In this document: positions 17,693-60,880 of the stretch, piece after piece | Position numbering within the stretch: position 1 is the first letter of the stretch | Layout of the letters: every line of letters begins with the position of its first letter | DNA from: Folioceros fuciformis | Taxonomy: Eukaryota | Assembly (NCBI GenBank): GCA_049999805.1 | Contig: JBNGIO010006139.1 | Span: forward strand, 51,034 to 115,033 | Direction of reading: 5' to 3' | Length of the DNA stretch: 64,000 nt | Made by a program: the position numbers and the translations under genes | Notes under the pieces: generated by a model | What the model saw: the letters and a program-made list of their open reading frames with translations, nothing else | What the model was told of the DNA's origin: nothing | Database searches by the model: none

Positions 17693-17832
17693 ACCGCACC
17701 CACAACCTTGGAAACATTGGATGGCATGTCACACCGCACCCACAACCTTGGAAACATTGGATGGCATGTCACACCNNNNNNNNNNTCACACCGCACCCAC
17801 AACCTTGGAAACATTGGATGGCATGTCACACC
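17693..17832. repeat. 40-bp tandem repeat (at least 3 copies, collapsed over a 10-N gap)
   Basis: Unit CACAACCTTGGAAACATTGGATGGCATGTCACACCGCACC at 17701, 17741 and again after the gap. Confidence 0.95.
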
Positions 17833-18945: not shown

Positions 18946-19443
18946 CTCTTGTTTTGTCTTCGCTATGGCTCCATTGTGGCTTCACACGTAAAGCAATGGG
19001 GAAAGGGCAAATTGCTCAACAACAATGCTGTGCTTGTTGCTATCTACCATTGCGCATCATAAGACACGGCATTAGAGTCCGGAATCAGAACAATACGCTT
19101 AACACGTGGTTGATACGGGAACCAACACACTTAAATTGTTAGGCCTGGAAATGGATCGAGTTGTGTATATTTTGTGGAATTGGGAAACGAGTTGAATCGA
19201 CAAGGGTACAGAGAGAGATAACGGGGGCACAAGTTACGGAACGGGGTACGGCGGTGAGCTGGTGGAGGCAGTCCGTTGGAGGCAACGGCAATGGGACGGG
19301 TTTGAAACGGGAGAGGGAGACGGTGCGAGGGTGACAGAACCCTCTCCCCGCCAAAGGTGGGTCTTGAAGTGGGCAGCTGTGGCCATGGCGCCTGGCGTTA
19401 GACGTCGAGCGTGATCGACGCCAGCAGCGTCGCGGCAAAGGGG

Positions 19444-22400: not shown

Positions 22401-25400
22401 CAGTCTGAGATCTACAGAGGGAGATGGCTCAGCGAGAAGCTCTGCTAGCCCTGAGAGCCAGAACGTAAAAGCCCCTCAGAATATTGGAAATCCATACAGG
22501 ACAGAAGCAAGGGTGGAGTTATTAGCAACACCTGCGAGCCCCAGGGCTGCAGTAGCTGTTGCAGCTGAGCAGGCTTGTGAAAAATGGAGATTGAGGTATG
22601 TCGACCACTGCTCAGTTTATTTGGCGGAGCAGTGCTGCTTTGTCCACATGTAGCTTGCAAATGTGGGTAAGAATTACTGGTAATGGAGTGCAGGGGCAAC
22701 CAGGCTTATGAGAGTGGAGACTTCTCTAAAGCAGAGGAGTACTATTCTCGCGGTGCTGGCAGTGTATCTTCACATATGACGTCGCAAAGCTGTGTCCGAG
22801 CTTTGATGCTCTGCTACAGCAACAGGGCTGCGACTAGAATGGCCATTGGAAGAATGAGGGATGCCATTGGGGACTGTGTCCGTGCTATGTCTGTGGATCC
22901 TAACTTCTTACGTGTGAGGCTTCGGCTGGCTAAGTAAGTGTGCAGTGATGGCTTTGGTCTGGTGCACTGAATTGTACAAGACTGCAGGTCTGTTATGGGG
23001 GTTTTCACGTAGAAGTTTTCCTAGTGCAGTATCGTCATTGGTTTTTGCAGCTTGTCAGAAACTCAGCTTTATGTTTGCATCCAGCTGCCATTTGTCTTTG
23101 GGAGAAACGGAAGCAGCGTCAGCTGCATTCAAGGAGTGTTTGAAGCGAGTGAAGGAAGGAGACCATGTTCTTGACTCGAAGATTGCAGCAGAGGCTGCAG
23201 AAGGTTTGAAGAAAACACAGGTATCCGTCAAAATCAGGCAGGCCTCCTCACAGAAAGCATCTGTGTTTTAAATGATGAACCAGTTGTGGATCCTTGAGGG
23301 ATAACAGGTTTCAGAAATGCTGCGGGAAACATGCTTTTAAAGGTTGTGATAAGCTTGAATAGTTTGAGTTGAGCTTCTGAGCTTTTGAGCTGGTGGTCAA
23401 TCACATGTCCCTTGTGAAATTCAGGTTGTACAGGAGTACACTGACCGGGCATTAGAGCTTTTGAAGACCTTGAATGTCGCAGATCAAACAAATGCTTTAC
23501 GACTGGTGACAGAAGCATTAAAGCACAGCCAATATACAGACAAGTTGGTGGAATTAAAAGCCATCGCTCTACTTTTGGTACGTTGAGTATGATCGTAATA
23601 CACCACGTTTACCATGAGATGTGTAGCTTGCGTTAGTTCGATGTTTTTCCAGCTAAGCATCTGACTGCATCAAAACTGGCTGATAGTTGAGGAAGTACGA
23701 GGACGCTGAGCAGCTCTGTGAGCAGACTCTTGTGGCAGCAGAGCGGAATTATCCTATGTCGGATGTGCCAAAGAACAGTAACAGTGAATCCTCTCCTGGG
23801 CAGCCGTACAATATTTGGAGGTGGAAGGTCTTTGCTAAATGTAAGTACCATCTTGGGAAACTGGAGGAATCTCTAGAGTACCTGCAGAGGATAGAGCAAT
23901 TTACGCCTGCTTTCAGTGACAGGTAAGCCCTTCTCTGAAGTCTCTGCTTTTGCTTGTCATCACTCGCAGTTTCTGGGGTTCAGCTTCAGCCATTAGATTT
24001 GAATAATCGCTTTGTGACAGCTTTTTTTGGATTGGTTTGCTGTATAGCAGTCTCCGGATGGGCCGCAGTTTCATGAGTGCTTTTGTGTGTGAGCGCTTAA
24101 AGATGATGTGCAGTATATGTTTCTGAAATCTGATCAATGGGAGCAACTTGTATTGCAGGCTCGATTTCTGGCAGATTTTGGACATCAAATCTCCCCAGAG
24201 TTCAACGATTCGCAATCTTTTGCAATATAAGGTGGCCTGCTTGAAACTGCTTTCCTTGGTATACAGCAAAACCGGATGTCAAGTTGTCGTTAAAGTTGTG
24301 TACGCTGCTGATCTCACGTTTCTGTTCATCCATAGGCAGCAGGTAATGAAGCTTTCCAAGCTAACAGACATGCAGATGCAGTGGAACAGTACACTGCTGC
24401 CCTAGCATGCAGTGGAGACTCCCGCCCATTCAATGCTGTCTGTCTGTGCAATCGAGCCGCAGCCTCACAGGCGCTAGGGCACATTGCAGATGCGATTGCA
24501 GATTGCAGCAGGGCAATCGCCCTTGATCCAAAGTATGCAAAGGTTTGTGTAACCCTTATCCTTTTAACTTGCTTCACTTTTCTCGAGCATTAGTCTGATT
24601 TGGTGTTATGCTTGAGCATAGTAGCTGATGGATATAGCACTAGAGTCGGTTGATTGCTTTGCTTCGAGCACGAGTCTCTGAACGAAGATTGAAGCCCTAC
24701 ACGTGTACAGGCCATTTCAAGGAGGGCGACTTTGCATGAGCTTGTGCGGGATTATTCCCAGTCTGTCAGCGATCTACAACGGCTGATTTCACTGCTCGAA
24801 AGCCAGAAGCTGCATGCTAAGGGTGGCCACGGGGGTAAGCCGAAATCAACCACCATCAGCCAGGACCTACATCAAGCTCGCGAAAGGTTGGCCAAAGCGG
24901 ACGAAGAAATCAGGATGAGAAAGAAGGATCATCCTCTGGACCACTATTTGATTCTGTAAGTTAACCTTGTAAACCATCTGAGGTGAAGTTGAGAAGGGTG
25001 AGAAATAGGGTTCAGGGTGGTTATGTGTGAAATGCAGAGGGGTTGATAAAGTCAGCACTAATGGCGAGATCAAGAAGGCATACAGAAAAGCAGCCTTGAG
25101 GCATCATCCTGACAAGGTACGTCTGTTCCCATTTCGCTCTTCACTTCATCATTATCTGCAGCCTCCTAGAATCACGGTACTAAATAGTTTCAGCACGATT
25201 CAAGAGATTCGTCGTTTGTCATGCGGGGCACACGGCGTCCTTACTTAGTGTGTGGTTGACTGTTCAGGCGGGCCAGTTTGTGGTATGGAATGATGGAGCT
25301 GATGACACCCTGTGGCAAGAGATTCGTGATGAAGTTAGGCGGGATGCAGAGCGTCTCTTCAAACTCATCGGGGAAGCAAACGCCGTACTTTCAGATCCTA

Positions 25401-27019: not shown

Positions 27020-30000
27020 TCAGTGGGCATCTCTACATGTACATGTCCCATCTGTGAAGTGATGCACGCGGTGGGCGTCTCTCACTATGATATCTCGGCC
27101 TTCAAGCCTGGACAAGATCTTTGTGCTGCTGTGGCAGTCGTCGCACATACGAAGGTTTTTGGTGACCAGCAAAGTGGTGCCTTTTGGAGTGTTGAGGAGA
27201 CCGAAAGCCAATGCCAGCTTCTCAGCGTGTCCACACAGAGAGTCGGCTTCCTGCTTGTCAGCAACGTGTGAAGCTTTGAACTCCATTTCTGTTCGTGCCT
27301 GCTGGCCTTCCACCTCCATGTGTTGACTGAGACTAAGTACCTTCAGATGGGCATCACATCTCTGATCACCAATGGTGAACTTATGTATTGTCTGATTCAC
27401 CTCAATCATGGCCGTTGCCGGCTTCTTCTGGGCTCCATGGTGTGTTCTCATCTTCTCTATAATCCTTGCGTCCTCCCATCTGCCAGCATTTGAGTAGATA
27501 TGGGACATGAGAACGTAAGCAGCAGATAGCTGTGGCTGCATCTCGATGAGCCGGTTGAAGCACAGCCTTCCTCTCTCCACAGCACTGTGACTTTTACAAG
27601 CACTCAGTAAAGACATCCAACCAACCGTGTCGTTTCTGAAAGGCATGGTTCGGAGAACACTCTCCGCATCATCCAATCGTCCAGAACGCGCAAGAAGATC
27701 AACTACGCAGTTCAAAGTCTCAAGGCTTGGCATAATACCATGATCCTCGATCATCGTCTTGAAGACGTGAAGGCCATCCTTCACCAAGCCTCCGTGACTG
27801 CATGCCACCAGAAGGCACGTGAAGGTGGCAACGTTGGGCTCAATACCATGTTCCTGCATCTCCTCGAAGCATCTGATAGCCGTCTCACAGCGATTATGCT
27901 GGCCATATCCATTAATAAGTGCAGTCCATGTTGCAACATCCCTGATTGGCAACCTCTCAAAAAATGCGAGGGCATCTTCCAGTCTTCCACATTTTGAATA
28001 CATGTCAATCAGACTACTTCTTAAGGACACTTCTCCTCCTAGACCCCTTCCGACGATTTGAGCGTGCAACGACCTGCCTTTTTGCAGAGCTCCCAAGTTC
28101 CCGCAAGCCTTTACCAAACTCAAAAAGGTAATTTTATCGGGGCACACTCCGTCCAGATGCATTTCTCCATAAAGATTGAGAGCATCAACGCCATAGCCAT
28201 GGTTCACACATCCTTCAATCAAGGCATTCCAGGTTACCACATCTTTGATCAGCAACTTGTCAACGATTCTGCATGCATCCTCCAGGCTCCCACACTTTGC
28301 ATACATGTCCAGCAGCGTATTTCCAACAACCAAATCGGCCTCCAGCCCCGCTTCCAGAATCTGTGCATGAATTTCTCTGCCCTTGCGTAAAGCTCCCGTG
28401 AGAGCACATGCTTTTAAAACGGACACAAATGTCAACCTGTCTGCAGTCATGCATCCCAGCTGCATCTTGCTATAAACATTGAGAGCACACTCACCAAACC
28501 CATGCTCAATATGTGCTTCTATCATGGCATTCCAAGTCACAGTGTCCTTGTACGGCAACCTGTCAAAGACTATGCACGCGTCTTCCAAGTTTCCACATTT
28601 GGCATACATGTACACGAGACTGTTCCCTAGAAAACCATCTTCCTCCATCTCCCGTTGCAGAAGCTGGGCATGAATGTGCTTGCCCTTATGGATGGCTCCA
28701 ACGCCTGCACACGTTCTCAACATGCACAAAAATGTAACCCTGTCAGGCATCAAGCCATCCTGTTGCATCTGCTCATAAAGTTTCAGGGTTTCCTGTCTTA
28801 GCCCGTGTCCAGCATATCCTTCCATCATGACATTCCAGGTAGCCACCCCCTTGGTACGCAAATTTTCAAAGACTTTCCGAGCGTCTCTCAGGCTTCCACT
28901 CTTAACATACATGTGCACCAGGGTGCTTCCGAGAACTGCATCTGCTTCTAGACCTCTTTCCCTGATCTGGGCATGGACCTTCTTGCCTACATCCAGGGCT
29001 TTCAAACTAGCACATGCTTTTAGAACGCAGAGAAATGTGACATTGTTCGAGGGAGTTATGCCCTCCAGCTCCATTTCCGCATACAGATCCAAAGCCTCCT
29101 CACCCAAGCCATGCTGAGCATATCCCGCAAGCATGGCATTCCAGGCCACAACGTTCTTCGGGGACAACCTTTCAAACAGAGTACGAGCATCACTGAAGCT
29201 CCCACATTTGGCATACATATCTACCAAGGTATTTGCTATAGCAGCATCTCTTTCCAGCCCCAATCTTATAATGAAGGCATGGATTTCCTTTCCCATCTTT
29301 ATATCTCGAGCTCTTCCACATGCTTTCAAACTACAAAGAAAAGTCACCTTATCTGGCGTCAAGCCATTGTGTTGCATGACCTGATACAGCTGCAGACCTT
29401 CCAGACCTGAGCCATGCTCAGCGAATCCTTTGATCATTGAATTCCAAGTCACCAAGTCCTTGCTTGGCAGCCTGTCAAAAATTGTGCAAGCCTCCCTCAA
29501 GGACCCACACTTCACGTACATATCCACCAACGCGTTCCCGACTGTTGGGTCGATTTCCAAGCCCTTTTGAACAATTCGTGCATGAATTGCTTTGCCTGCG
29601 TGCACGACCCCAATCCCCCCACATGCTTTTAAAACACATAGAAATGTTATCTTGTCTGGAGCCACGCCATGCTGTTCCATGCTCCAGTAGATCCCTAGCG
29701 CCTCTTCACAAAGTCCATGCTGAGCATATCCTGTTATCAAAGCATTCCAGGTAACCACATTTTTGGTGGACATCATATCAAAAACAGCCTGAGCATCCTC
29801 CAAGCTTCCGCATCTACCGTACATATCCACTAGGCTGTTCCACACAAACACACTGGGCTCCAGCCCATATTTCTCAATGTCACCATGGACCAGCTTGCCG
29901 GATGCCAAATCTGCAGCTCTGCCACATGCTTTTAAGACCGCCACAAGTTCGTGGTTGCTGAGTCTGACAGCAGATTCTCGCATTTGCCGATACAATAGAA

Positions 30001-30256
30001 TAGCCACATCAGCCTCCGCAATAGCATCAGGTCCTAATATCCCTGAACCCCGAACCAGCTTGTCTCTGGCAGGCGCCTTGTAAGACTCACAGTCTTTGCC
30101 TTTCACACTCGTCCGAAGATTGTGGCTCTCATGCACGATTGGCACAGCCAAGGCATGCACTCGCCTGCCAAGTTCAGTCCCATGTCTCTTTGCAGGGCTC
30201 TCTTCGAGCGACATGAACGATCCGCTTGTAAGAGCACGGACTGCCCGCTGGCCCAT
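27020..30256 (-). CDS. PLS-class PPR RNA-editing factor with E1/E2 and DYW:KP deaminase-like domain (C-terminus DAH)
   Basis: Long PLS triplet array. KKPATAMIEV replaces the PG-box. Contains CGHAEKLALAFGLL, KNLRMCDDCH and HHFTDGTCTCRDAH*. Confidence 0.95.
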   Translation of the reverse strand: MGQRAVRALTSGSFMSLEESPAKRHGTELGRRVHALAVPIVHESHNLRTSVKGKDCESYKAPARDKLVRGSGILGPDAIAEADVAILLYRQMRESAVRLSNHELVAVLKACGRAADLASGKLVHGDIEKYGLEPSVFVWNSLVDMYGRCGSLEDAQAVFDMMSTKNVVTWNALITGYAQHGLCEEALGIYWSMEQHGVAPDKITFLCVLKACGGIGVVHAGKAIHARIVQKGLEIDPTVGNALVDMYVKCGSLREACTIFDRLPSKDLVTWNSMIKGFAEHGSGLEGLQLYQVMQHNGLTPDKVTFLCSLKACGRARDIKMGKEIHAFIIRLGLERDAAIANTLVDMYAKCGSFSDARTLFERLSPKNVVAWNAMLAGYAQHGLGEEALDLYAEMELEGITPSNNVTFLCVLKACASLKALDVGKKVHAQIRERGLEADAVLGSTLVHMYVKSGSLRDARKVFENLRTKGVATWNVMMEGYAGHGLRQETLKLYEQMQQDGLMPDRVTFLCMLRTCAGVGAIHKGKHIHAQLLQREMEEDGFLGNSLVYMYAKCGNLEDACIVFDRLPYKDTVTWNAMIEAHIEHGFGECALNVYSKMQLGCMTADRLTFVSVLKACALTGALRKGREIHAQILEAGLEADLVVGNTLLDMYAKCGSLEDACRIVDKLLIKDVVTWNALIEGCVNHGYGVDALNLYGEMHLDGVCPDKITFLSLVKACGNLGALQKGRSLHAQIVGRGLGGEVSLRSSLIDMYSKCGRLEDALAFFERLPIRDVATWTALINGYGQHNRCETAIRCFEEMQEHGIEPNVATFTCLLVACSHGGLVKDGLHVFKTMIEDHGIMPSLETLNCVVDLLARSGRLDDAESVLRTMPFRNDTVGWMSLLSACKSHSAVERGRLCFNRLIEMQPQLSAAYVLMSHIYSNAGRWEDARIIEKMRTHHGAQKKPATAMIEVNQTIHKFTIGDQRCDAHLKVLSLSQHMEVEGQQARTEMEFKASHVADKQEADSLCGHAEKLALAFGLLNTPKGTTLLVTKNLRMCDDCHSSTKILSRLEGRDIIVRDAHRVHHFTDGTCTCRDAH

Positions 30257-30494
30257 GACCGTCTCTGGCCCCCAGTCCTCATCCTCTTATCTGGTACCAG
30301 AATTTTCTGCACTGGTCCCAGTACAGAACCATCGCACAGCTTCGGGGAAATAGGAACAGATGAAACAGCAGAAGGCCCTGATATATCCATACTACAAGCT
30401 CAACTCACAATCTATTGCTGTGAAGAGAAGGAGACACATCCCCAGCCCTTCACCCTCCCCGCCCGTCGATCCACATTGAGATTGGACTTGTTAC

Positions 30495-31178
30495 ATGATG
30501 GAAGGACCAGAACGCCTGTACCACGAAAGACAGCGTCTACAAATGTGTCTCCTCCACTCGCTCAACAACCTCCTACAGGTGGGCAAACGGAACTTCAAAC
30601 ACGGTTAGCTGATTCTTCGCGTTCGATGTACTGAGCAATTACAAACAAGCTGGGTTCGACATCTGCAGGGAGAGAGTCCTTTCACCAAAGCCGAGCTGGA
30701 CACCATAGCCGACAATCTGCCCAATTTGGAGCAGACGCAATTCGACCGCTGGAATCCCTTTTCGCCAATTCTGAAACAGCACCGGAACGCCATTACCGGA
30801 AACTACGATGCAGAAGTTCTTTTCGCTGCATTGAAGAGCAGAAGCAAGGATGTGACCTGGTACGATCGGAGGCACGGGTCAGCAGGATTGCAGCTGGCGG
30901 GTGCCGATCATTCTTTGGTTGGAGTGGTTGCGAATATCTTGAAAACCAGGCTAGGTGGGCTGTGGAAGGGAAGGCACTGGGTTGCTCTGTGCAACGTGCA
31001 CGACATTTGGTATAACTTGGACAGTGATTTGCGAGCTCCAGTTCCATTCAAAGATGGGTGGGAAGAGGTACAAGTGTACATGGGGAAGATGCTGGAAGAA
31101 GGAGCGGAGATCTTTTTGGTCAGAAATCTGCAAGCCTCGACAAGCCTACACGAAGTCTCAGACTCAAACCCCGCATGA
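30495..31178 (+). CDS. Josephin-domain deubiquitinase (JOSD-like), 2 exons
   Basis: Exon 1 (30495-30578) is MMEGPERLYHERQRLQMCLLHSLNNLLQ, followed by a GT-AG intron at 30579-30668. Exon 2 (30669-31178) has GNYDAEVL, GRHWVAL and WYNLDSDL. The Cys-His-Asp triad is present. Confidence 0.93.
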
Positions 31179-33523
31179 ACATAAGCCTTGCTTAAAATGG
31201 TGTACACAGTGTGCATCTCTAACTATGATCTCCCTCTGTTCGATCTTGGACAAGACCTTCGTTCCGCTATGGCAATTGTTGCACATACGCAGATTTTTAG
31301 TGATGAGCAAAGTTGTGCCATCTGGAGTGTTCAGGAGGCCAAATGCTAGAGCAAGCTTCTCAGCATGTCCACACAAGGAATCTTTTTCCTCCTGGTCAGA
31401 CACTGGTTTCAGTCCCATCTCTATCTGCGGCCTGTGGCCATCCCGTAGCATTTGCAAGTTCAGACTTCGCAACTTTGACGAGAGATCGTCCCTGTGCTCC
31501 CCAACGATGAACTCATGCACTTTGTTGTCCACTTCGATGAAAGCTGTGGCAGGCTTCTTCTCCGCACCAGCATGTCTTCTCATTTGCTCGATTCTGTCTG
31601 AATCTTCCTGTCTTCCAGCACCTTCATAGATGTTTGCCATGAGAACATAACCAGCAGCCAGTTGCGGATCGAGCGCCACAAGGCGATCGAAACACCGTCT
31701 CCCTCGCTGGACGTCTCCATGAGTTTTGCACGCACTTAGCAAGGACCTGCACCCCACAACGTCAGGAGGAAAGGGCATTGTTTGCAGCACATTTTCAGCC
31801 TCGTCCAAGTGCCCTGACCGTGCAAGAAGGTCCACGATACAGTTACAGTGCTCCAGTGCGGGAGTAATGCAATGGCTGTTTACCATTGCTGTGAAATACT
31901 TTCTGCCTTCATCCACCAGACCCACATGACTGCAGGCCACCAGAAGACACAGGTAAGTGGCACTGTTCGGCTCAACGCCATGCCGTTGCATCTCTTCGAA
32001 ACACTGAATTGCCATGTCACAATCATTTTGCTGACCATAACCGTTAAGTAGTGCTGTCCATGTTGTGACATCTTTAGCAGGCATTTGGTCAAACACAAGG
32101 CGCGCGTCCTCCATGCTGCCACATCTACCGTACATGTCCACAAGTGTGTTCCCTACGAACATGTCTCCCTCCAGACCCCTTGCCTGTACATCAGCATGAA
32201 CTTCCTTGCCCGTGTCCAGGGCTCCTACACAACCACAAGCCTTGAGAGCACATACAAATGTAACAGCATTGGCTGGATGGATGCCTTCCTGCTGCATAGA
32301 CGCATAGAGATCAAGAGCATCCTGACCAAGCCCATGCTGCACATATCCCGCCATCAGCACTGTCCATGTTACGACATCTCTAAGCGGCAGTCTGTCAAAC
32401 ACTGCACGAGCATCATCTAGGCTCCCACATTTAGTGTACATATCCACGAGAGCACTGCCGATAAATACATCTGCTTGCACCCCCATTTCCAGAATGTTAA
32501 CATGAATCTGTTTCCCTCTTTGAACCGCACTTACTCCTAGGCTCCCACAGGCATTCAGAATGCTAACATATGTAACTTTGTCTGGTTTCACACTACCCTC
32601 TTGCATCATAGCATACAGATCGAGAGCCTCCTGACTACGTCCGTCATGAGCATAGCCTGCAACCATCGTATTCCAAGCTACCACATCTCTGGATGGCAAG
32701 CTGTCAAACACAGTTCGCGCATCTAACAAATTCTTGCACTTAGAGTACATGTCCACCAGGGCACTTCCCACAAACACGTTGGATTCGAGTTGAAGATCAG
32801 TGATATCCTTATGTACCAGCTTCCCAGTTGTCAAATCCGCTGCACCTGCACAGGCCTTCAGAACAGCCACAAAGACATAATCATTGGGCTGGACGGTGGA
32901 CTTTCGCATCCGAGTGTACAGTTTGATAGCCTGCTCAGCTTGTCCATGCTCTGCATATGCTGAAATGATGGAAGCCCACATAAAAACGTTCGGAGCAGGC
33001 ACTTTGAGAAACACTTGACTTGCCTCCAGCAGATTCCCCAAGGAGGCATACATACGAATGAGGTGATTGGCCAAAAACGGGTTCAGTGCATACCCACTGT
33101 CCACTGTGAGCGCATGAACCCTCCGACCTAGATCCGGATCTCTCGTCTCAATGCATCCTTTGAGAACCCGATACAACATGTCTCTCGTAATCCAACCCCG
33201 ATGCTCCGCAAGTTCCAACACTTGCACGGCCTCATCCACCCTTCCCTCATCACATAGCCTGCTCCAGGTCTCTGCAGCTCCTTCATTCCTCACCGCCCTG
33301 CACTGTCCAGTGCATGGCACGATGTAATTTCTTTCCCTCCAATTCTTGAATCGAACAAACGTGGAGACAAATGAAGCCTCGGAGGATGAGAAATACCTTT
33401 CATCCCGACGAGGAAAAGGAGCTGATTTGTGCTGCACCAGGTTCGACCAGGATTCAAGCCAAGGAGCCTTCCGCGTTTTGTGCTGCACGAAGTCCGACTC
33501 AGTCCACGACTAGGTGCTCTCAT
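31164..33523 (-). CDS. PLS-class PPR RNA-editing factor with DYW:KP domain (C-terminus CGV*); 5' exon inferred
   Basis: PLS array with KKPATAFIEV, CGHAEKLALAFGLL, KNLRMCNNCH and HHFKQGLCSCGV*. The main ORF has no early ATG. Probable first exon runs from ATG 33523 (MRAPSRGLSRTSCSTKRGRLL...), spliced via an intron at about 33397-33274. Confidence 0.92.
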
Positions 33524-40390: not shown

Positions 40391-41458
40391 CACTGGAGTT
40401 GCTGACACCACCTCTCTTGCCAATGTCATTGCTCCCCTTGGAGTTGTTGACATAGCCTCTCTTGCCAACATTGTCGCTAACATTGGAGTTGCTGATGTTG
40501 TCTCTCCTGTTAATGTCATTGCTACCATTAGAGTTGCTGACAGCACCTCTCCTACTATCGCTACCACTTGAGTTGCTGACACTGCCTCTCTTGCCAATAT
40601 CGTCGCTACTACTGGAGTTTTTGACACTGCCTCTCTTGCCAATATCGTCGCTACTACTGGAGTTTTTGACACTGCCTCTCTTGCCAATGTAGTCGCTACC
40701 ACTGGAGTTATCAACACCAAATCTCTTGCCAATTTCTTTGCTACAACTAGAGTTGCTGATGCCACATCTCCTACCATCGTTACCACTAGAGTTGCGGACA
40801 CCCTCTCTCTTGCCAATGTCATTGCTACCACTGGAGTTGCTGACACCATCTCTCTTGCCAATGTCATTGCTACCACTGGAGTTGCTGACACCATCTCTCT
40901 TGCCAATGTCATTGCTACCACTGGAGTTGCTGACACCATCTCTCTTGCCAATGTCATTGCTACCACTGGAGTTGCTGACNNNNNNNNNNNNNNNNNNNNN
41001 NNNNNNNNNNNNNNNNNNNNNNNNNNNNNNNNNNNNNNNNNNNNNNNNNNNNNNNNNNNNNNNNNNNNNNNNNNNNNNNCCACTGGAGTTGGTTACACCA
41101 CCTATCCCGCACCACTGGAGTTGTAGAAGCCACCTCCCCTCCCAATGCCTGTCGTCCATGATGCAATTTATGTACCGAAAGATAGATCCTCTCAAATATT
41201 TTCTTCAAAGACTTCAATCTCCTACCATCGCTACCACTAGAGTTGCTGACACCCTTTCTCTTGCCAATGTCATTGCTACCATTGGAGTTGCTGACGCCGC
41301 ATCTCCTACCATTGCTACCACTAGAGTTGCTGACACCACCTATCCTGCACCACTGGAGTTGTGGAAGCCACCTCCCCTCCCAATGTCTGTCGTCCATGAT
41401 GCAATCTATGTACCAAAAGATAGATCCTCTCAAATATTTTCTTCAAAGACTTCAATCT
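40391..41458. repeat. Minisatellite of 45-bp units (with 33-bp variants) plus an approx. 239-bp higher-order duplication; spans an N-gap
   Basis: Unit TGCCAATGTCATTGCTACCACTGGAGTTGCTGACACCATCTCTCT at 40811, 40856, 40901 and onward. Block CACTGGAGTTGT.GAAGCCACCTCCCCTCCC...AAAGACTTCAATCT at about 41112-41220 and 41351-41458. Confidence 0.95.
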
Positions 41459-42063
41459 ATGGATAGAGGGAGTGTGTTTCTCACATTAACGTTGGAAAGA
41501 TATACTTGCAAAATATCGTACCTACATGAACGATGGAAAGAGATATTTGCAAAATATCGTACCTACATCCGCTTTAGAACTGAATGATATTAGCAGTGTG
41601 AGGGCAGCGAGGCCCTCTATGTGTGGAACTGGGTGGGTGAGGGGACGATATAAAGAAAGGGTAGAAAGGATTATTTTTGTGGAAAGGGTTTTAAGAATGA
41701 AATAGAAATGAACCAATTTCGAGAAACCGATATCGAGAAGGGAGAGTGTGACAAGGTATTAATGTGTGACTACATGGAGGAGAAGGAAAGAGAGGAAAGG
41801 GCACGAACAAGGACGGGGTCCTTTACCGTCTGAGCTGAGCAGGCTGGGGAGGCCGCGGAAGAATGAGGTGACGGAGGCTCTCGGCCTGCGAACGCGGTGA
41901 GCGTCTGCAGGGCGTGCAGCGCTGCGGAGCTGCCAGTTGATTGCTGTGGCGGGATGGAAGGNNNNNNNNNNNNNNNNNNNNNNNNNNNNNNNNNNNNNNN
42001 NNNNNNNNNNNNNNNNNNNNNNNNNNNNNNNNNNNNNNNNNNNNNNNNNNNNNNNNNNNNNCC

Positions 42064-52382: not shown

Positions 52383-54291
52383 TCTGAGTCCAACATTCAC
52401 CCCGATCGCCTTGCCTTCACCTAGCTTTTCCCTGATCCGCTTCTGCAACACACGGAATTACACAATCTGCAGCCACTGCACATTCCAGCCAGCATCAGCC
52501 GTCCGGTCCGTCGGGACAGGCCAGGCCTTCACCACAACCAGCAGCGCGTACCCGATGCCCCGTCTCCGTTCTAGGGTTTGGTGCCAGTCCCGTTGGACGA
52601 CGCAGCCGGTGGCGTGTCACAGTCACGTGAATCATTTGAAAACGTCTCGCACGTCTCGCTTCCACTTCTCCCGGTCCCTCGAGCCTCATAGTTAAACAGT
52701 GGTCGCTCTCGTGATTGTGCGCCATTGGTTCTCGGCTGTCAAGGCAGGCCAGTTGGCACAGAGAAGGCTTCCAAAGCCGAACAGGCCCCTACATATCCCA
52801 GGCCTGTCCAAACTGGTAACAGCTCTGGGCCAGTTTCCGGCCCGGACACTCCACACGCTCCATACTCTGGCTCTGTCCGGACTCTGAAATTTCCAATTCC
52901 AGCGGGGTCGAGAGCCGTGAGAAACCAGTGTCACGCCCCTTCCATGGCAGAAGTGGAAGCTGCGAGCTACGTGATGAACACGTGGAGTCCACTCCCAGCC
53001 GAGGTGAGACCTACACTTCAAGCTCAGTTGTTCTCTTCACTGCAAGATGCAGAGTTGCAGGAAACTGGCGGGTGGTGCGTTCCTCCATCTCTTGTACATA
53101 CTCGACGAGTTGTTTCTCCAGAAATCCATACGGGCAGCCGTCTGCTACATCTCTGCCGTCTGAGATTCTAACGATTCAACAAAACTACAAATGACAACAA
53201 CAGTGCTTCCGACACCTGGTGCATAACTGCCTGAATGTATTCACTTGACAGATCAGAGTCTCCCAACAAGAGAGAGCAGTGACTGGATCCATTCTTGAGA
53301 GGGTAAAGCTTCACAGGAAAAGAGAATCATACAGAATCCTTGTACCCTCATCCTCGTATCCTCTGGCCGCATCTGAGACAGTGGATCCACAACACTTCAG
53401 CATTGCGCAAAACACGTGGAGGCAGATGGCTGGAGGGATCGTCGTTGCGAAAGCATCGGGCAAACCAGGTGAATCAGGGCAGTAAATTCCCAGCTGCCAT
53501 CCTTGAACCTGCGGATGCTCACAGTGGGTTCACTCATCGGCTGACACAGAAGAGTAACGTAAACGCCGTTAACACCGCCGATGCCTTGGTTCACTTATCC
53601 GCTGACACAGAACGGTAACGGGATGCCGTTCAAACAGCTCGACGTGAAAGCATACCACTCGCAGGTCCAGACGAGAAAATCAATTTTCTCTCTCTTCAAC
53701 ACAGAACTCTCTCATATTAATCCGTATTTTTGATATGGACATAAAAGACCTCTATGACGCTTGCGTCCCGTAGCGGCGAAGGACGCGGGCCATGGTGAAA
53801 GAAGGATCTAGATTCCATTGGAGCTGGAAAAACTTGTGGGGTCGGTAAGACAAGAGACACACAGCGGACCAAGCGCTTGACATAGCCATGGTGCAACCAG
53901 CGAAATTAGCGTGGACACTGGTCTCGTCAGGATTGTTTCCTGCTGACAGAAAGAAATGTGACAGTCATACTGTCCAGTTATCTGGTGACGGATCTGCCAG
54001 GCTAGCACCGATATTTTGTCAACAGAGGACATAGCTGGGTGCATGGCTTGGATCCTCTCGGGAGGCGTGACACAACAAAGATGGGCAGGTGCAATGGTTC
54101 CATCCGTACAGGAGGCGTGGGAAAGTAGGCAGCAGCTGGGGGATGTCGTGGTCCATGTCGAATGCCATGGCCGCCAGCAATCCTTGGGGCTCCTAAGTTA
54201 GAAAGAGCCCTCTCGCTTCGCAGGAGCCATTTGGGAATTTTGTGCAGCGTTGGGTTGCAAGCCTGTTTGTGTTTCACAGACGGGAGGAGCA

Positions 54292-56030
54292 ATGACGGAT
54301 CCTTACACGGTGGTCGAGCTTGTGTTGTATCCTGTGAAGTCATGTCGTGGTATTTCGGTACCAAAAGCTTGCGTCTCGTCTCGGGGTAGGTAGTGGCTGA
54401 ATGAGTCATGGTGTCTGGTTCCTGATGTTCTTTGTCATGACCTCTGAATGGTCCCAAACTATGCAGGTTTTCTGTACGACAGGGACTGGATGGTGGTGAC
54501 TGCAGACAAGGGACGCTTGATTACACAGCTCAGAGTTCCTAAGATGGCGCTTGTACAGACTTCTCTTCCTCTTGGTCTGTTCGGAGGACAACCCGTGCCC
54601 AGTGCTGCTGTTCTGTGTAAGCTCTCTCTCTCTGCCTAGCTCCTGTTTGTGAACTGGTTCTCCCAGAAACCTCACCGCTTTCATGGTCTGGCAGGCATGG
54701 ATGCACCTGGAATGCCGACGCTCAAGGTTCCCGTCACGAGACCTGTCCCAAGCTCTGCTCTGAAGGTCGGGCAGCGAGGAGCCATTGTGGATGTCGTGGT
54801 ATGGGCGTGGTCTGGCCTCGGCGTAGATGAAGGTCCGGAGGCTAGCAGGTGGTGGACTGAGTTCGTGGGCATGCCTGCTCGTCTGGTCCGAGTTCATGAC
54901 GGTGAGGTCCAGTCCCTTCACTCCTTATCCAGGTTATCCTAGCTGAATGCCTCGATCGAGAACGGGGACCTTGACGAGCCATTTGATACAGATCTGATGG
55001 ACCGCCAAGTGTCAAATGCTCCTGATGGATTTGTGACCGGGTTCAGCAACACAGGACAGTTCCTGCTCCAATCTGAGGTGCACCTTTCAGCCACTTCCCA
55101 TGATCATGTCATGTCACGTCTTCCCATCTTCTTAGTTCATAGAATCAGCCATGTGCAGGCCTCACTGGAAGATCTGAACCAGCGTTTGGAGCATCCGCTC
55201 CACATGAACCGCTTCAGACCCAAGTCTGCCTACTTGTGCCTCAGTCTCTGAAGATGAAGCATCTCTGCCGACTTGCATTTCCTGCATCATGCTGTCCAGA
55301 ATTCCTTCAGCCTTTCCTAACTACCAGTCCTGGGGGTCCTGCGGCAGTTTTATCATCCGAGGACCCAGGGCGTATGAAGAGGACGAGTGGCGCACCTTTG
55401 CAACTGTGCGTAATGGCCAGAAGCTCCAGTTCTCTTTCGTCAAGCGCTGTTCTCGATGCAGGGTACGTACGTATGTCAAGCGTCTTCCAATGCGAGCTTC
55501 GCTGCAGGCACCACGAGGGCAGGAACCCACCATGCTATTTCGTGTCCCAACGTGCAGGTTCCAAACATCAACCAGGAGACTGCCGAAGGTCCTGCTGCCG
55601 AGCCTGGGCAGGTCTCTGCAAGTCTGACATGCCCACGAGCCTACAACTCCAGTCTTCGCACTTTCTTCAAAAAATTATAAAATGTACTACACCGTACTTT
55701 CATCTGACACTAACCTCGTGTCAGCTGTGTACAGACACTGACCAGTTACCGATCTGGAAAGCTGCTGGGCATGGATGCCAGGGACGCGAGGCAGGTGCGT
55801 ATCCTTTTCGCTCACAGATCCACTGCCCTTGCCTCCTCTCCTACTCCTTACAACAACCTAGAACCTTCCTTCCTTACTCTGCAACTCATTGCCTTGCCTG
55901 CCAGATTTTCTTCGCGACCTACTTCGTTTGCGACCGCACCACGAGTCTGAAGACGAGCCCGCTGGATGAACTCCCTGCTGTGGCAGTCGGAGATGCGCTT
56001 GAAGTGCTCACCTGGGCACCCTCGTTGTGA
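54292..56030 (+). CDS. MOSC_N + MOSC molybdoenzyme, mARC-like (multi-exon)
   Basis: Exons read LYPVKSCRGISV / GFLYDRDWMVV / PKMALVQ / VDEGPEASRWWTEFVGMPARLVR / ASLEDLNQRL...MNRFRPNFII / YEEDEW / KRCSRCRVPNINQET / VAVGDALEV. Confidence 0.9.
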
Positions 56031-56102
56031 TTCGTTTTTGGCATGGGCACACGCTGTGGGCCAGCAGAGCTTCTGTGTTGCTAGCGTAATGCCAGGAGAA
56101 GC

Positions 56103-56500
56103 CGTGTTTGAGAATGCGTTGTAGGACCCCGTGTTCGAGGATGCATTGAAAGATCCATGTTAGAGGACGCATTGAAGGATCCCTGCTAGAAGAAGCATAG
56201 AAGGGTTCGTGTTTGAGGATGGATTGAAGGATCCGTGTTTGAGGATGGATTGAAGGATCCGTGTTTGAGGATGGATTGAAGGATCCGTGTTTGAGGATGG
56301 ATTGAAGGATCCGCGTTTGAGGATGCATTGAAGGATCTGCGTTTGAGGATGGAGTGAAGGATCCGGGTTTGAGGATGCATTGAAGGAGCCATGTTTGAGG
56401 ATGGATTGAAGGATCCTTGCTTGAGGATGGATTGAAGGATCCGTGTTTGAGGATGCATTGGAGGGGCCATGTTTGAGGAGGTGTTTAAGGACCCATGTTG
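56103..56500. repeat. 26-bp minisatellite, about 15 copies, degenerate at the edges
   Basis: Unit GGATTGAAGGATCCGTGTTTGAGGAT at 56221, 56247, 56273 and onward. Confidence 0.95.
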
Positions 56501-56999
56501 GAGGTCACTGTATGAGGAATGCTGGTTGAACTACAAAGATGGCTCAAATGGCCTGATTCTTCCCTGTCGCCAAGCATGAGAAGTGAAGAGCGTCCTGAAG
56601 GGAGACGATTCTAAGAGTTGCAAGAGGGCTCGTGTAATGACAAAGACTGGTGGAGAAACTCCACTCCCAANNNNNNNNNNNNNNNNNNNNNNNNNNNNNN
56701 NNNNNNNNNNNNNNNNNNNNNNNNNNNNNNNNNNNNNNNNNNNNNNNNNNNNNNNNNNNNNNNNNNNNNNGACAGCACTCACACCATATGGGCTGGATGA
56801 GTTCACAAGGGCCAGCGCCATGCTCCTTCGCCCGTGCACGATTTTAGTGTTTTGGTCCAACGCCGTTTCATAATTCAACTACATCGCTTGAGTTAGGCAA
56901 CCAGGTTTATTATTAACTCATGGTCAGGTTAAGTTCGAGACTCCGAATGAGTGCGCGTGGGACTTGGTCGCCATGGCCTTGCCGCCATGTTGTCGGTAG

Positions 57000-58068
57000 G
57001 AGTGCGAGCTCGACATGGAGCCAGTGGCCGCGCCGTCCAAGAGCTCTCCAGATGCTGCGTGCATTGTGGAAGCAACGTGGGATCGAGGATCCGGTTTACC
57101 GATGCTCAAGAACATACAACCTCCAAGCATCAGCCCCGACACGGTGAGTTGAACTGCTGACCGAATTAGGGTTTGCAGGAACTGATTCTTGCTGATCATG
57201 TCCCGATGCCGTAATTGTGGTGTGTGTATGTGTATGTGTGTTGCAACAGCTCAAGGCTGTGATGGCCAGGGAGCCAGGATATGACAGACTGCAGATCAAA
57301 ATACTGGACTGCAGGCATAACTTTGAATTTGAAGGCGGACACATCCTAGTCAGCCTCTTCACCATGACTGTCTGTTCTGGCATTAGGACTCTGAGTAGGG
57401 CCGCCGGAATGCCTGGATATCCGGCCTGTGGAGGTCCTGTGTGGCTGACACAGCGCATCTCTCTGCCAGGGCGCAGTCAACCTGAACGAGCCAACGTCTC
57501 TGGACGAGTTCTATGCGGACCATGAAAGTGAAGGGAAGAACATGGTGCTTCTGTTCCACTGCGAGTTTTCTTCGTCGAGAGCACCGCAGATGTAAGTCTT
57601 TCTCAGGGCAACTCCTCCATGCTCTTCTGTGTTGTTCTCTTTCCTCACAAAGTGCTAGCCCGGGCAGGTACGCACACATGCGAAACATGGATAGGCATCG
57701 ACACATGGAAGTGTACCCCGAGCTGGCATTTCCCCACATGTTCCTGCTGCACGGAGGATACAACTCCTTCTATTATATGCACCCGGTGAGCAACCTGCCT
57801 TCACGTAGTGCGTGACCAGAATGCTCATCGTTAAGGGGCCTTCATTTCACTACATGGTTTCCTGCAGGAGCTGTGTGAGCCCAGGCAGTACGTGCGGATG
57901 CTGGACTCGCAGTACAGTGAACAGCTGAGGATCGCCAAGGAGAGTCTGAGAAGAAGCTGGAGCAAAGTCAGATCTCGTGAAGGCGATATCGCGAGAAGAG
58001 TCTGTGACACAGGCTGTGACAGGATTAGCAGGGCCAAGTCTAAAGCTGTGAGGTCACTTGACGTCTGA
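57000..58068 (+). CDS. CDC25: CDC25 (M-phase inducer-type) dual-specificity phosphatase; 5' end uncertain, further exons may lie at 56580-56870 across the gap
   Basis: Exons 57000-57143, 57250-57348, 57470-57591, 57668-57785 and 57868-58068 are joined by phase-compatible GT-AG introns. Product: ...LPMLKNIQPPSISPDT-LKAVM...ILDCRHNFEFEGGHIL-GAVNL...LLFHCEFSSSRAPQM-YAHMRNMDRHRHMEVYPELAFPHMFLLHGGYNSFYYMHP-ELCEPRQYVRMLD...*. Confidence 0.9.
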
Positions 58069-58303
58069 AGGCTGTCCAACTCCATCTTTTTTATACATTC
58101 CTATTTTCAGTCACAAAACGCGCGCAGAACCTTTTGTACAGCTTCCTCTAGCAATATCGAACTACAGTCCGTGTCGGGCCATTGCCAATTTGGCACCAAG
58201 CATGGCCGTCAGACGACAAATACTTTTGTCTACTTCTGAAACACACAATGTGCCCTGGAGAAGCTCAGTGCTTCGAGCGTCGCAAGTAGCTTTTCGCCCT
58301 CCA

Positions 58304-58455
58304 GGATGAACCTCCGTTGCCCGGATGAGCCTCCGTTGCCGGGATGAGCCTCCGTTTGCAGGATCAACCTCCGTTGCCAGGATGAGCCTCCGTTGCCAGG
58401 ATGAACCTCCGTTGCCAGCATGAGCCTCCGTTGCCAGGATAAACCACTGTTGCCC
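58304..58455. repeat. 19-bp minisatellite, 8 copies
   Basis: Consensus GGATGAGCCTCCGTTGCCA starting at 58304, 58323, 58342, 58361, 58380, 58399, 58418 and 58437. Confidence 0.95.
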
Positions 58456-58579
58456 ACAACCCATAAAGCATCGTATTCCGGGCTTACAACTCTCAGATCA
58501 CAGTCATGGCCATGGACATTGATCCCAACAATGCAAGACTGGGAGCAGGCATTAGCAGTATCGTATCACGCCAATCCCA

Positions 58580-60418
58580 TCAAACCTTCCTGCACACATC
58601 ACCCTCACACACAAACCCTTCCTTCACATCATGTCCAGCACCTTCCTCTTCCCCAGCACCATCTGCAGGGGGCACTGCCGGAGGTTCGCTAAGCTTTGCA
58701 CTGCAATGGACGTGAACGTCGTAGCTGCATTCGTCACAGCGGTAAGCCCAGCGCCGTCCTGTGGTCTCGCAAATGTCACACTCGAACTGCCCGCTAACGT
58801 ATGGAACCCTCATAAGCACCAGGGGATGCGGATGGCCACCGACCGTGACCTCCTTAGCGTACTTCTGCACCTCTGCATCCTCCTCCTCGTGCAACTCCTC
58901 CTCACGCTCCTTGGAGAAGGGATAAGCTTTGGCTCCGAAAGCTTCCACCAACGCGGTGGCGTCGAGCGTGACAACAGACTTCCCATCAGGAGCAAGAATC
59001 ACCAACGTCGGCGTGCCTTCCGCATCAAATGTGGACTCAACCTCATCCGCCTTCTCCCTCTCAGCGTACGGCAGCGCCAGCCACGGCATTTCCGCGTGGT
59101 ACTCACGGAAGCTTTCCTCATTCCTGTCGCGGGACACGAACACCACCTCAAACGGCTTCCCCTGCTCCTTCAGCTCGTTGTAGACCTTCACCAACTTGGG
59201 AGTGAAATCCCGGCAAGCCGGAGACCACTGGGTCGAGAAGTACAGACCAACCGTCTTCCCGAGCAAGGAGGCAACCTTAGTCTCCTCCCCAGCTTGATTC
59301 ACCAGAAAGTCCCGCTCCTCCGTCACCAGCGCCTTCTCCAAGGTCCTCCTAGCAACCTTGATCTGCTCCAGCTCCGCAAACCTCTCCGGTGTGTACGGGA
59401 ATCCCTCGGCTCCATGCCTCTTCACCAGGCCCACGGCGTTGCTGTGCGTCGTCTTGCCGTGCTCATCCAGCAGCACCAGGCTAGGGATGCCGCAGACTTC
59501 GAAGTAATTGTCGAGACGGGACTTTGTGCGCTTATCCGAGAAGGGAACCGCCGGCCATGGCATCGTCTCGAGGTATTCCTTGAAGGCCTCTTCATTCCCA
59601 TCTCCCGACACAAATACCACCTCCAGTTCCTGCTTCTCCTCCTTCAGCTTCTTGTAAACGTCCGCTAGGAATGGCGTGAATTTCCGGCACGGAGGACACC
59701 AGTGCGCAGAGAAATAGATCCCCACCCTCTTCCCCTCTAGATCTGAAACCTTCACTTTGCTTCCGTCAGCTCGAACAAGAGAATCCCTCCCTTCTTCCGG
59801 CAAGAACAAGGACTGAATCGTCTGATTCGCCTTCGCCGCCTCCATCTCCTCCACCAGCTCCTGCACTCGCTCGTCCGTGAAGGGGAAGGCATCGGCTCCC
59901 CATTTCTCCACGATCGGCCACGCCGGCTCGCGACTGAACCTGCCGTCGGCTCCCACGAACGAGAGGCTGAAGATCCCCAGCCGGAACAGCTCCTCAATCT
60001 TGCTGCGGACGGCGGCGCTTCCGAGCGGCACCGCCAGCCATCCGGCGGGCATCTTCTGCAGCACATCCTTGAAAGACTCCTCGTCCGGCCTCCGATCTAC
60101 CTGGCTGCCTTCCCCGAACTTCTCCAGGGACTCGATCACGCCCTCATTGCGGTCCACAGTCGAGTATACGATCACCAACGGCTTGCCCTTCTCAACCAGC
60201 GACTCGTACGGATCCACGAGCAACGAAACAGCTTCGATGAGGCGAGAAGGCAGCCAGTGCGGCCCGACCACAAATCCAACCACCTTCCCTTTGATTTCAT
60301 CGTACTTGAACTCCTTTCCAGCTCCGTTCACCAGTACATCTCCATCCCCGGGAAACAGCAAACTTTGCAAATCCACCTCCGTAACGCTTGCAGCATCGTT
60401 GTCCCGCTCCACCTCCAT
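58580..60418 (-). CDS. NRX1: Nucleoredoxin (three thioredoxin-like domains + C-terminal C1/DC1 zinc domain), intronless
   Basis: GKRVGIYFSAHWCPPCRKFTP, GKTVGLYFSTQWSPACRDFTP, HPHPLVL...FECDIC...YRCDECSYDVHVHC and C-terminal GFVCEGDVCRKV. ATG at 60418. Confidence 0.92.
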   Translation of the reverse strand: MEVERDNDAASVTEVDLQSLLFPGDGDVLVNGAGKEFKYDEIKGKVVGFVVGPHWLPSRLIEAVSLLVDPYESLVEKGKPLVIVYSTVDRNEGVIESLEKFGEGSQVDRRPDEESFKDVLQKMPAGWLAVPLGSAAVRSKIEELFRLGIFSLSFVGADGRFSREPAWPIVEKWGADAFPFTDERVQELVEEMEAAKANQTIQSLFLPEEGRDSLVRADGSKVKVSDLEGKRVGIYFSAHWCPPCRKFTPFLADVYKKLKEEKQELEVVFVSGDGNEEAFKEYLETMPWPAVPFSDKRTKSRLDNYFEVCGIPSLVLLDEHGKTTHSNAVGLVKRHGAEGFPYTPERFAELEQIKVARRTLEKALVTEERDFLVNQAGEETKVASLLGKTVGLYFSTQWSPACRDFTPKLVKVYNELKEQGKPFEVVFVSRDRNEESFREYHAEMPWLALPYAEREKADEVESTFDAEGTPTLVILAPDGKSVVTLDATALVEAFGAKAYPFSKEREEELHEEEDAEVQKYAKEVTVGGHPHPLVLMRVPYVSGQFECDICETTGRRWAYRCDECSYDVHVHCSAKLSEPPAVPPADGAGEEEGAGHDVKEGFVCEGDVCRKV

Positions 60419-60880
60419 CTCCACCAAACCCCAGCAATTCACACGGATGCAACCCAAATTCGGCTCTGTAGGCCAACGTAGAGTGGCGCACACCGAAGCG
60501 ATGACTCGTCTAAGAAAGATAAGGACAGACGGTAATAATAAGGTTCCCGGTTCCCTTCTATGCAGCCACTAGGAAGGTGCAGTGCTCTGTTGACTTTCGC
60601 AATGCCAAGGTCAAGTCAAGACATCCGAAGTGCACTGTTGCACTGTGTTTCGTGTGAAGACATCTGTTGAGCTCTGTTGCACTGCGTGAAATCATCTGCA
60701 GTGCTTTGCTGCTGTGCCTTCAAGACTGACTTCTTTCTCTTTGAGACAGAGGAAGAGGGGTCAGGCTCTCTCCACACATAGCTCCTAAACGCGTCAATTG
60801 TCCGGGAAGAGGAAATTTACCCTTCACCACTCTGTTGAAGAGAGTGTCACAAAATCGTTCCACATACATATATACACAAG

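Follow-up and report, generated by a model that had tools for sequence, protein, structure and literature searches.

The window analyzed here is a 64,000-nucleotide stretch of the genome of the hornwort Folioceros fuciformis (contig JBNGIO010006139.1 of assembly GCA_049999805.1; all positions below are those of the window), and the gene that we describe in it, a CDC25 phosphatase gene, lies on its forward strand between 57015 and 58068. When joined, the five exons of this gene form a frame of 669 nucleotides, that is, 222 codons followed by TGA, and the four introns that separate them (106, 121, 76 and 82 nucleotides) are all of the GT..AG type. The original prediction, made from the letters of the window alone, had assigned to the locus five exons encoding a complete Cdc25 catalytic domain. 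This was borne out by the spliced frame, in which all the motifs that it had quoted are present. It had also set the limits of the gene at 57000 and 58068; the end coincides with the TGA codon at 58066–58068, but the start had to be moved to the ATG at 57015, just 5' of which there is an in-frame TAG (56997–56999).

Exon 1 (57015–57143) comprises the start codon and a 43-residue N-terminal lead-in, which closes on the ISPDT motif, aligns with the PSIS-x-x lead-in of orthologues, and is followed by the donor GTGAGT. Exon 2 (57250–57348) encodes a CH2A-type box (ILDCRHNFEFEGGHI), in which the residue after GGHI is L, and its donor, at 57349, reads GTCAGC; the 3' border of this exon was set by an RNA joint (57348>57470), and the 5' border by contig arithmetic (see below). 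The box, of the form DCR..[FY]E[FY].GGHI.GA.N, is completed by the start of exon 3, the two parts facing residues 45–61 and 63 onward of CDC25A. Exon 3 (57470–57591), with GT..AG RNA joints on both sides, contributes GAVNL and the active-site loop HCEFSSSR, an HCX5R loop of the HCEFSSxR type that aligned to HCEFSSER of CDC25A/B and lies exactly where it had been predicted (57557–57580). Exon 4 (57668–57785) encodes MRNMDR...YPELAFPHMFLLHGGY, with the equivalents of the CDC25B residues that form the cyclin-dependent kinase (CDK) docking hot-spot, and exon 5 (57868–58068) encodes ELCEPRQYVRM and the C-terminal RRSWS tail motif, which aligned with the LKRSW tail of orthologues and the RSWA tail of CDC25B, and ends with the stop codon. 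Among the 43 columns that are invariant across five orthologues, those covering the motifs have the identical residue in the window protein.

No long N-terminal regulatory domain, which in animals corresponds to the Pfam family PF06617 (M-inducer_phosp), was found. Exon 1 matched no Pfam family at E ≤ 10, and hence not M-inducer_phosp, and the residues that precede exon 2 number 43. Because the TAG at 56997 falls in a colinear part of the transcript, the coding region starts at 57015 and the protein has no long regulatory N-terminus. Essentially, the predicted protein would be a rhodanese-fold catalytic domain plus the 43-residue lead-in. We also considered the gene upstream as a source of a Cdc25 N-terminus and rejected it: its last exon runs into stops in all three frames by 56030, and an upstream Cdc25 exon is ruled out as well by the TAG at 56997 inside the colinear transcript.

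Transcription and Splicing of the CDC25 Gene

The exon borders could be compared with contigs of a public run, X1. No run is recorded as RNA, and X1 was taken for RNA by guess, though its contigs do lack the GT..AG introns. Words sampled from 56771–58600 were present in this run in 70% of cases, and 11 of its 12 contigs on 53000–60700 were at least 99% alike to the window. One of them (record 4, 3643 letters) consists, in order, of 56426–56670, 42 letters, 56771–57142, 339 letters, and 57867–60511, and shows GT..AG joints at 57348>57470, 57591>57668 and 57784>57867. Since these 339 letters are accounted for exactly by exons 2, 3 and 4 (99 + 122 + 118), intron 1 must be removed too; its joint follows from this contig arithmetic and was not listed owing to a skipped repeat at 57214–57245. 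The gene is thus expressed, with its exons joined in the predicted way, and the check by RNA that had been proposed for the splice junctions gave three listed joints and, by arithmetic, the absence of the remaining intron. Run X2 had no contig placed on 53000–60700, and run X3 had just three 31-letter pieces there, all within the neighbouring nucleoredoxin gene.

The same contig extends 5' of the coding region. The stretch 56426–57014 (+) is transcribed, either as the 5' untranslated region (UTR) of the CDC25 gene or by read-through of the gene that precedes it. An N gap (56671–56770) lies in this stretch, and the contig is colinear over 56771–57142 without a joint. The 100 N of the gap correspond to 42 letters only in the contig. 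Seven upstream ATGs, opening upstream reading frames of 8–75 codons, lie in 56771–57014, ahead of the CDC25 start. If this stretch is truly 5' UTR, they may mean translational control, or a transcription start nearer the ATG. They would also suit a copy in decay or a pseudogene that is still expressed, as would the long branch of the window protein in our trees, but with the frame open, all splice sites used, and the motif residues the same as those in the orthologue-invariant columns, we consider decay very improbable.

Assignment of the Protein to CDC25

To assign the protein among the rhodanese-fold families, we searched the exons one by one against all PDB chains and Pfam. For each of exons 2 (33 residues), 3 (40 residues) and 4 (39 residues), all 12 of the 12 distinct PDB sequences matched were CDC25A, CDC25B or CDC25C. 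The best E-value was 0.021 for exon 2 (1c25_A, residues 45–61) and 2.7e-4 for exon 3 (1c25_A, residues 63–104); for exon 4 it was 1.2e-4, with CDC25B, and the match of this exon to CDC25A fell at residues 112–139, the three exons being colinear along CDC25A. Exon 5 alone found no relative in PDB, its single match (E 4.8) being an unrelated one. In Pfam, exon 2 matched Rhodanese at E 0.019, under the cut-off, and the other per-exon matches were chance ones (zf_C2H2_10, E 0.16; DUF429, E 0.22). When 1.84 billion representatives were scanned with exon 3 by HMMER, seven matches were obtained, among them proteins of Mesotaenium endlicherianum, Sphagnum tenellum, Riccia sorocarpa, Ginkgo biloba (Gb_10573) and a bivalve.

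A profile built from five streptophyte relatives of the window protein separated the CDC25 family from the other families. In PDB, it matched CDC25B with an E-value of 1.6e-43, and all 12 distinct CDC25 sequences fell between 1.6e-43 and 2e-40, whereas the values for Leishmania ACR2 (2j6p), yeast Ygr203w and Arabidopsis CDC25 (1t3k) were 7e-07, 1.8e-4 and 0.86, respectively. The spliced window protein itself matched this profile with 256 bits (E 1.3e-80). In blastp, it matched 124 of the 124 stored family members, with an identity of 50% to the protein of Calypogeia (4e-71), 51% to that of Riccia (2e-66), and 46% over 195 residues to Marchantia MpCDC25_1 (E 2e-66); a Sphagnum-like protein was also among the best matches, and animal M-phase inducer phosphatases reached 36–46% identity (E about 1e-41).

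Such results bear on the possibility that a small rhodanese of the ACR2/Arath;CDC25 kind (arsenate reductase type) was mistaken for a Cdc25. The window protein is indeed small (222 residues), and Pfam recognizes in its orthologues the generic Rhodanese family only (4/5 members). Nevertheless, the PDB matches of the individual exons were to CDC25A/B/C and never to 1t3k, 2j6p or Ygr203w, and the orthologue profile prefers CDC25B to ACR2 and to Arabidopsis CDC25 by the values given above. By both approaches, CDC25 is a closer relative of the protein than ACR2, Ygr203w, MKP-rhodanese or the sulfurtransferase rhodaneses are, and the original prediction of a canonical Cdc25 catalytic domain was supported in this respect. 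We therefore regard the mistaken identity as scarcely credible, and that the gene is a real member of the canonical CDC25 clade as nearly certain.

The equivalents of the CDK–cyclin docking residues were compared separately. In CDC25B, the residues of the docking hot-spot are R488, R492 and Y497. In the profile alignment, the arginines of MRN and DR and the tyrosine of YP fell on FIRERDR..DYP of CDC25B, so that the window protein has R, R and Y in the docking columns, matching the hot-spot. The alignment that the original prediction had drawn for these three residues was thus reproduced, with a two-residue insertion after DR relative to CDC25B. As judged from the sequence, the motifs for catalysis and for CDK–cyclin docking are all kept in an intact, spliced gene.

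Phylogeny and Intron Positions

A tree of the domain alone was calculated for 19 rows and 190 columns chosen from the 124 stored family members, leaving out a Sphagnum model that lacks an exon and rows with long branches. The search for homologues had been restricted to proteins of 104–517 residues, and consequently, no fungal Cdc25 is present in our trees; ACR2-type proteins were also left out. The 14 green-lineage rows, with the window protein among them, were split from the five animal rows at 100/100, and the rows nearest to the window protein by path were those of liverworts; the order within the green clade was left without support, 7 of the 16 inner branches of the tree being open. An earlier tree of 27 full-length rows gave the same picture with lower support and with long-branch warnings. 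The window protein falls among the sequences of bryophytes and streptophyte algae and not among the animal ones. Of the phylogeny that had been called for as a check, our trees thus cover the green versus animal part.

The positions of introns provide a second line of comparison. A Sphagnum-like fragment, which clusters with a 48-residue piece, keeps an intron at the exact border of GGHIK and GAVNL; it has the stretch equivalent to exon 3 in common with the Sphagnum model. The Sphagnum tenellum gene model, in turn, omits precisely the equivalent of exon 2. Because intron positions are common to the window gene and moss genes, they argue for its vertical descent.

Native Origin of the Gene

The convergent neighbour of the CDC25 gene, at 58583–60418 on the minus strand, encodes a nucleoredoxin (NRX) of the plant NRX1 type, with 612 residues, no intron, and the Thioredoxin_8 (4e-55) and C1_2 domains in Pfam. 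Among the 120 matches listed for it, all rows with a named organism were land plants; the best named matches among those listed came from non-seed plants, at 42–48% identity, and two others reach 55%. In a quick tree, the window nucleoredoxin grouped with those of liverworts (99 in the approximate likelihood ratio test of the Shimodaira–Hasegawa type, SH-aLRT), while lycophytes, ferns and seed plants formed a separate clade (99). This tree and the KP-type DYW domains of two other window genes (see below), taken with a content of guanine and cytosine of 50.6% and introns of 76–124 nucleotides, point to a bryophyte as the source and, with fair confidence, to a hornwort. The X1 contig described above links the exons of the CDC25 gene to this gene, reaching 60511; such a two-gene contig should not be read as one transcript.

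The upstream neighbour, at 53839–56030 on the plus strand, is a separate multi-exon gene with one frame open across its spliced exons and a stop at 56028–56030. Eight GT..AG RNA joints were found in it between 54384 and 55902, and its introns, of 78–124 nucleotides, are similar in size to those of the CDC25 gene (76–121 nucleotides). We classify it only tentatively as MOSC-type, as its match to MOSC_N was weak (E 1e-4; 22.6 bits vs. a cut-off of 25).

The original prediction had placed the gene in a land-plant genome, gap-free to the plant genes on its right, and had argued against contamination. We therefore weighed whether fungal or animal DNA, as a contaminant or through misassembly, could have been joined here across an N gap. 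The last of the N runs in the window (3114–3213, 17776–17785, 40980–41079, 41962–42061 and 56671–56770) ends 245 bp 5' of the CDC25 ATG, and the local content of guanine and cytosine (54%) is above that of the window (50.6%), both of which would speak for it. But there is no N run after 56770, hence no gap between the CDC25 gene and, on its right, the NRX gene, of the plant NRX1 type, and a pentatricopeptide repeat (PPR) gene; PPR genes of the PLS-E and DYW types are present in the window. Also, a single spliced RNA contig, over 56426–60511, bridges the N gap and joins the CDC25 gene with the NRX gene. The closest relatives of the protein are those of bryophytes and streptophytes, the green sequences are separated from the animal ones at 100/100, and the gene has intron positions in common with moss genes. 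The connection of the two genes by one spliced RNA contig speaks directly against contamination, and we consider this explanation largely refuted and extremely improbable. The CDC25 gene is native to a plant genome and is linked to plant genes, as had been argued.

Comparison with Known CDC25 Proteins

The missing CDC25 of plants is an old puzzle of plant cell-cycle research. Its answer, that a gene of the canonical type was kept in bryophytes and streptophyte algae and lost in flowering plants, has been published. According to the available text of Romani et al. (Plant Cell 2026; PMC13237563), streptophytes have two CDC25 clades; one of them, homologous to the canonical CDC25 of metazoans, has been lost in vascular plants. 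In the same text, this canonical clade is reported from bryophytes and streptophyte algae, MpCDC25;1 is described as G2/M-specific, and the species sampled include Anthoceros agrestis. MpCDC25_1 (Mp4g01900) is named in the available part of PMC11799827 and also in NCBI, where a Klebsormidium protein is annotated as 'M-phase inducer phosphatase', and orthologues from Marchantia, Riccia, Calypogeia, Sphagnum, Klebsormidium and Mesotaenium are present in databases. Thus, the novelty that the original prediction had made dependent on the lack of described bryophyte orthologues is gone, and the locus confirms a published result rather than being a discovery. The available text of the 2025 preprint of PMC13237563 contains no occurrence of 'CDC25', and our literature search on bryophyte or streptophyte CDC25 found no further paper on the subject. 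The window protein is absent from the protein collections searched, and a word-index search with exon 3 gave one candidate and no match, the query being too short. The locus adds to the family a further member, of a kind already described, together with an RNA-backed gene model. This model, exact to the exon, comes from the third bryophyte group, the hornworts, and adds evidence that the plant form is the catalytic domain alone and that it has intron positions in common with mosses.

Like the window protein, MpCDC25;1 and the other members of the streptophyte canonical clade are short, essentially a catalytic domain, and have the same motifs and a C-terminal LKRSW tail, and in the tree they form one green clade with it. 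The named land-plant, Klebsormidium and Mesotaenium homologues are 190–327 residues long. The window protein differs from the liverwort ones (295–327 residues) in its lineage, its length of 222 residues, its shorter lead-in, and its longer branch. With human CDC25A/B/C (PDB 1c25, 1qb0/1cwr and 3op3), it shares the CH2A box, the HCEFSSxR loop, the equivalents of R488/R492/Y497, the YPE..Y.L.GGY and CEP..Y motifs, and the RSW tail, but not the long N-terminal regulatory domain. The two-residue insertion between DR and YP also sets it apart from the human proteins, and is present in a bivalve Cdc25 too. The proteins of the Arath;CDC25/ACR2 type (1t3k and 2j6p) resemble it in the rhodanese fold, the CX5R loop, and small size, but their similarity to the orthologue profile is marginal (0.86 and 7e-07 vs. 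1.6e-43 for CDC25B) and the window exons never match them. In the green lineage, a functional CDC25 of the canonical type has been reported from Ostreococcus tauri (Khadaroo et al. 2004, as cited in the available text of PMC13237563), which is a chlorophyte and can be likened to the window protein by description alone. Chlorophyte homologues, of Trebouxia and Myrmecia, were among the relatives that we found.

Two gene models of Ginkgo biloba, Gb_10573 (190 residues) and Gb_10572 (192 residues), are canonical-type CDC25 homologues, with 44% and 41% identity to the window protein, respectively, and form a branch of their own inside the green clade; contamination is possible in their case. Taken at face value, these two sequences sit badly with the published loss in vascular plants. 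No paper on a Ginkgo CDC25 was found in the literature.

Predicted Function of the Protein

Taken together, these results are best explained by a native, transcribed and intact bryophyte gene encoding a 222-residue Cdc25-type dual-specificity phosphatase, an orthologue of MpCDC25;1 that falls within the canonical CDC25 of the green lineage and not within the ACR2/Arath;CDC25 branch; we put the probability of this reading at roughly 0.85. By analogy with the known enzymes, we also favour, though by a modest degree, that the protein is a mitotic inducer acting on phospho-CDK. Its active-site cysteine would attack pThr14/pTyr15 of the mitotic CDK, and the dephosphorylation of Thr14/Tyr15 would reverse the action of WEE1 and so promote the G2/M transition. 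Animal and fungal Cdc25 have a long N-terminal regulatory domain that is missing here, and the plant and streptophyte homologues that we found are all short, so that the control of such an enzyme would probably be mainly transcriptional. Such control would fit MpCDC25;1, whose expression is described in the available text of PMC13237563 as G2/M-specific.

An alternative that we find unlikely, but less so than those discussed above, is that the gene is a genuine member of the CDC25 clade with a job other than the dephosphorylation of CDK Thr14/Tyr15, acting on other substrates or persisting as a drifting relic, while other mechanisms drive the G2/M switch, as they do in flowering plants. The presence of the catalytic domain only, with exon 1 matching no family of regulatory domains, and the long branch of the window protein in both trees would be in line with that. 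Moreover, Arabidopsis cycles normally without the dephosphorylation of CDKA;1 at Tyr15. On the other hand, the protein still has the catalytic loop, the CH2A box, the equivalents of the three CDK-docking residues and the RSW tail, it is encoded by an intact, spliced frame, and the gene has been retained across liverworts, mosses, streptophyte algae and the lineage of the window. The published work can be quoted on both sides: in the available text of PMC13237563, the authors state that the plant CDC25 component 'might work differently', and the Marchantia orthologue is described there as G2/M-specific.

Several further points weigh against a native mitotic inducer of the canonical kind, some of them against its function and some against the evidence for the gene. 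The name 'canonical', used in the original prediction, is justified for the catalytic domain but not for the protein as a whole, as the N-terminal regulatory domain is absent. In Arabidopsis, the control of CDKA;1 through Thr14/Tyr15 is dispensable, so that a role directed at CDK should not be taken for granted in plants. The branch of the window protein in the domain-only tree is long (1.16 vs. a median of 0.59), which could mean relaxed or shifted constraint. The order inside the green clade is unsupported, and the trees have no rows for fungal CDC25 or ACR2-type proteins. Run X1 is possibly the source sample, and so not independent of the assembly, and its contigs give no strand, level or transcript ends. 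Finally, MpCDC25;1 is termed 'a potential canonical' component in the available text of PMC13237563.

Tentatively, and with more doubt than assent, we can extend the picture of a CDK-directed phosphatase to a minimal Cdc25, a catalytic domain without a regulatory arm that would be transcribed at G2/M and would reverse WEE1 action on CDKA. On this view, the ancestral WEE1/CDC25 switch, which the original prediction had suggested for this lineage, would still be at work in the three bryophyte lineages alike. Since Ginkgo carries two tandem-numbered homologues, the loss, if these are true Ginkgo genes, would have been later and more patchy than one 'in vascular plants'.

Other Features of the Window

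Two tandem repeats flank the CDC25 gene. Between the stop codons of the CDC25 and NRX genes, a 19-bp repeat is present in 8.1 copies (58301–58454), with seven AACGG cores on the minus strand at a spacing of 19 bp, as compared with a window average of 1.1 per kb. AACGG is the core of the plant G2/M element, the mitosis-specific activator (MSA) element. The cores of the repeat lie downstream of the CDC25 gene, and their flanks do not fit YAACGGY. No MSA-like YAACGGY was found in the assembled part of 56031–57014, and the whole window contains 15, with 16.3 expected. On the other side, between the upstream gene and the CDC25 gene, a 26-bp repeat is present in 15.5 copies with 84% matches (56102–56504); it is transcribed, and RNA contigs break inside it. 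Within the upstream gene (53839–56030), two X1 contigs differ at nine positions and have alternative joints near 54900 and at 55065–55075, which suggests a second allele, a paralogue or an isoform.

Elsewhere, the window contains a 1083-residue stop-to-stop open frame at 19402–22653 (+), in which no Pfam family was found at E ≤ 0.001, a FAM135/DUF676 gene, a BING4-type WD40 gene, one PPR gene of the PLS-E type, and two of the PPR-E-DYW type. In the available part of PMC9478123, DYW domains of the KP type (DYW:KP) are linked to hornworts, lycophytes and ferns, with a DRH-ending variant in hornworts, and the proteins carrying them, known only from these three groups, are presented as candidate factors of U-to-C RNA editing. 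The two PPR-E-DYW genes of the window (27020–30286 and 31164–33509, both on the minus strand) both encode KP-type DYW domains, with KKPATA in place of the PG box and an HAE active site, and these domains end in ..RDAH and ..CGV.

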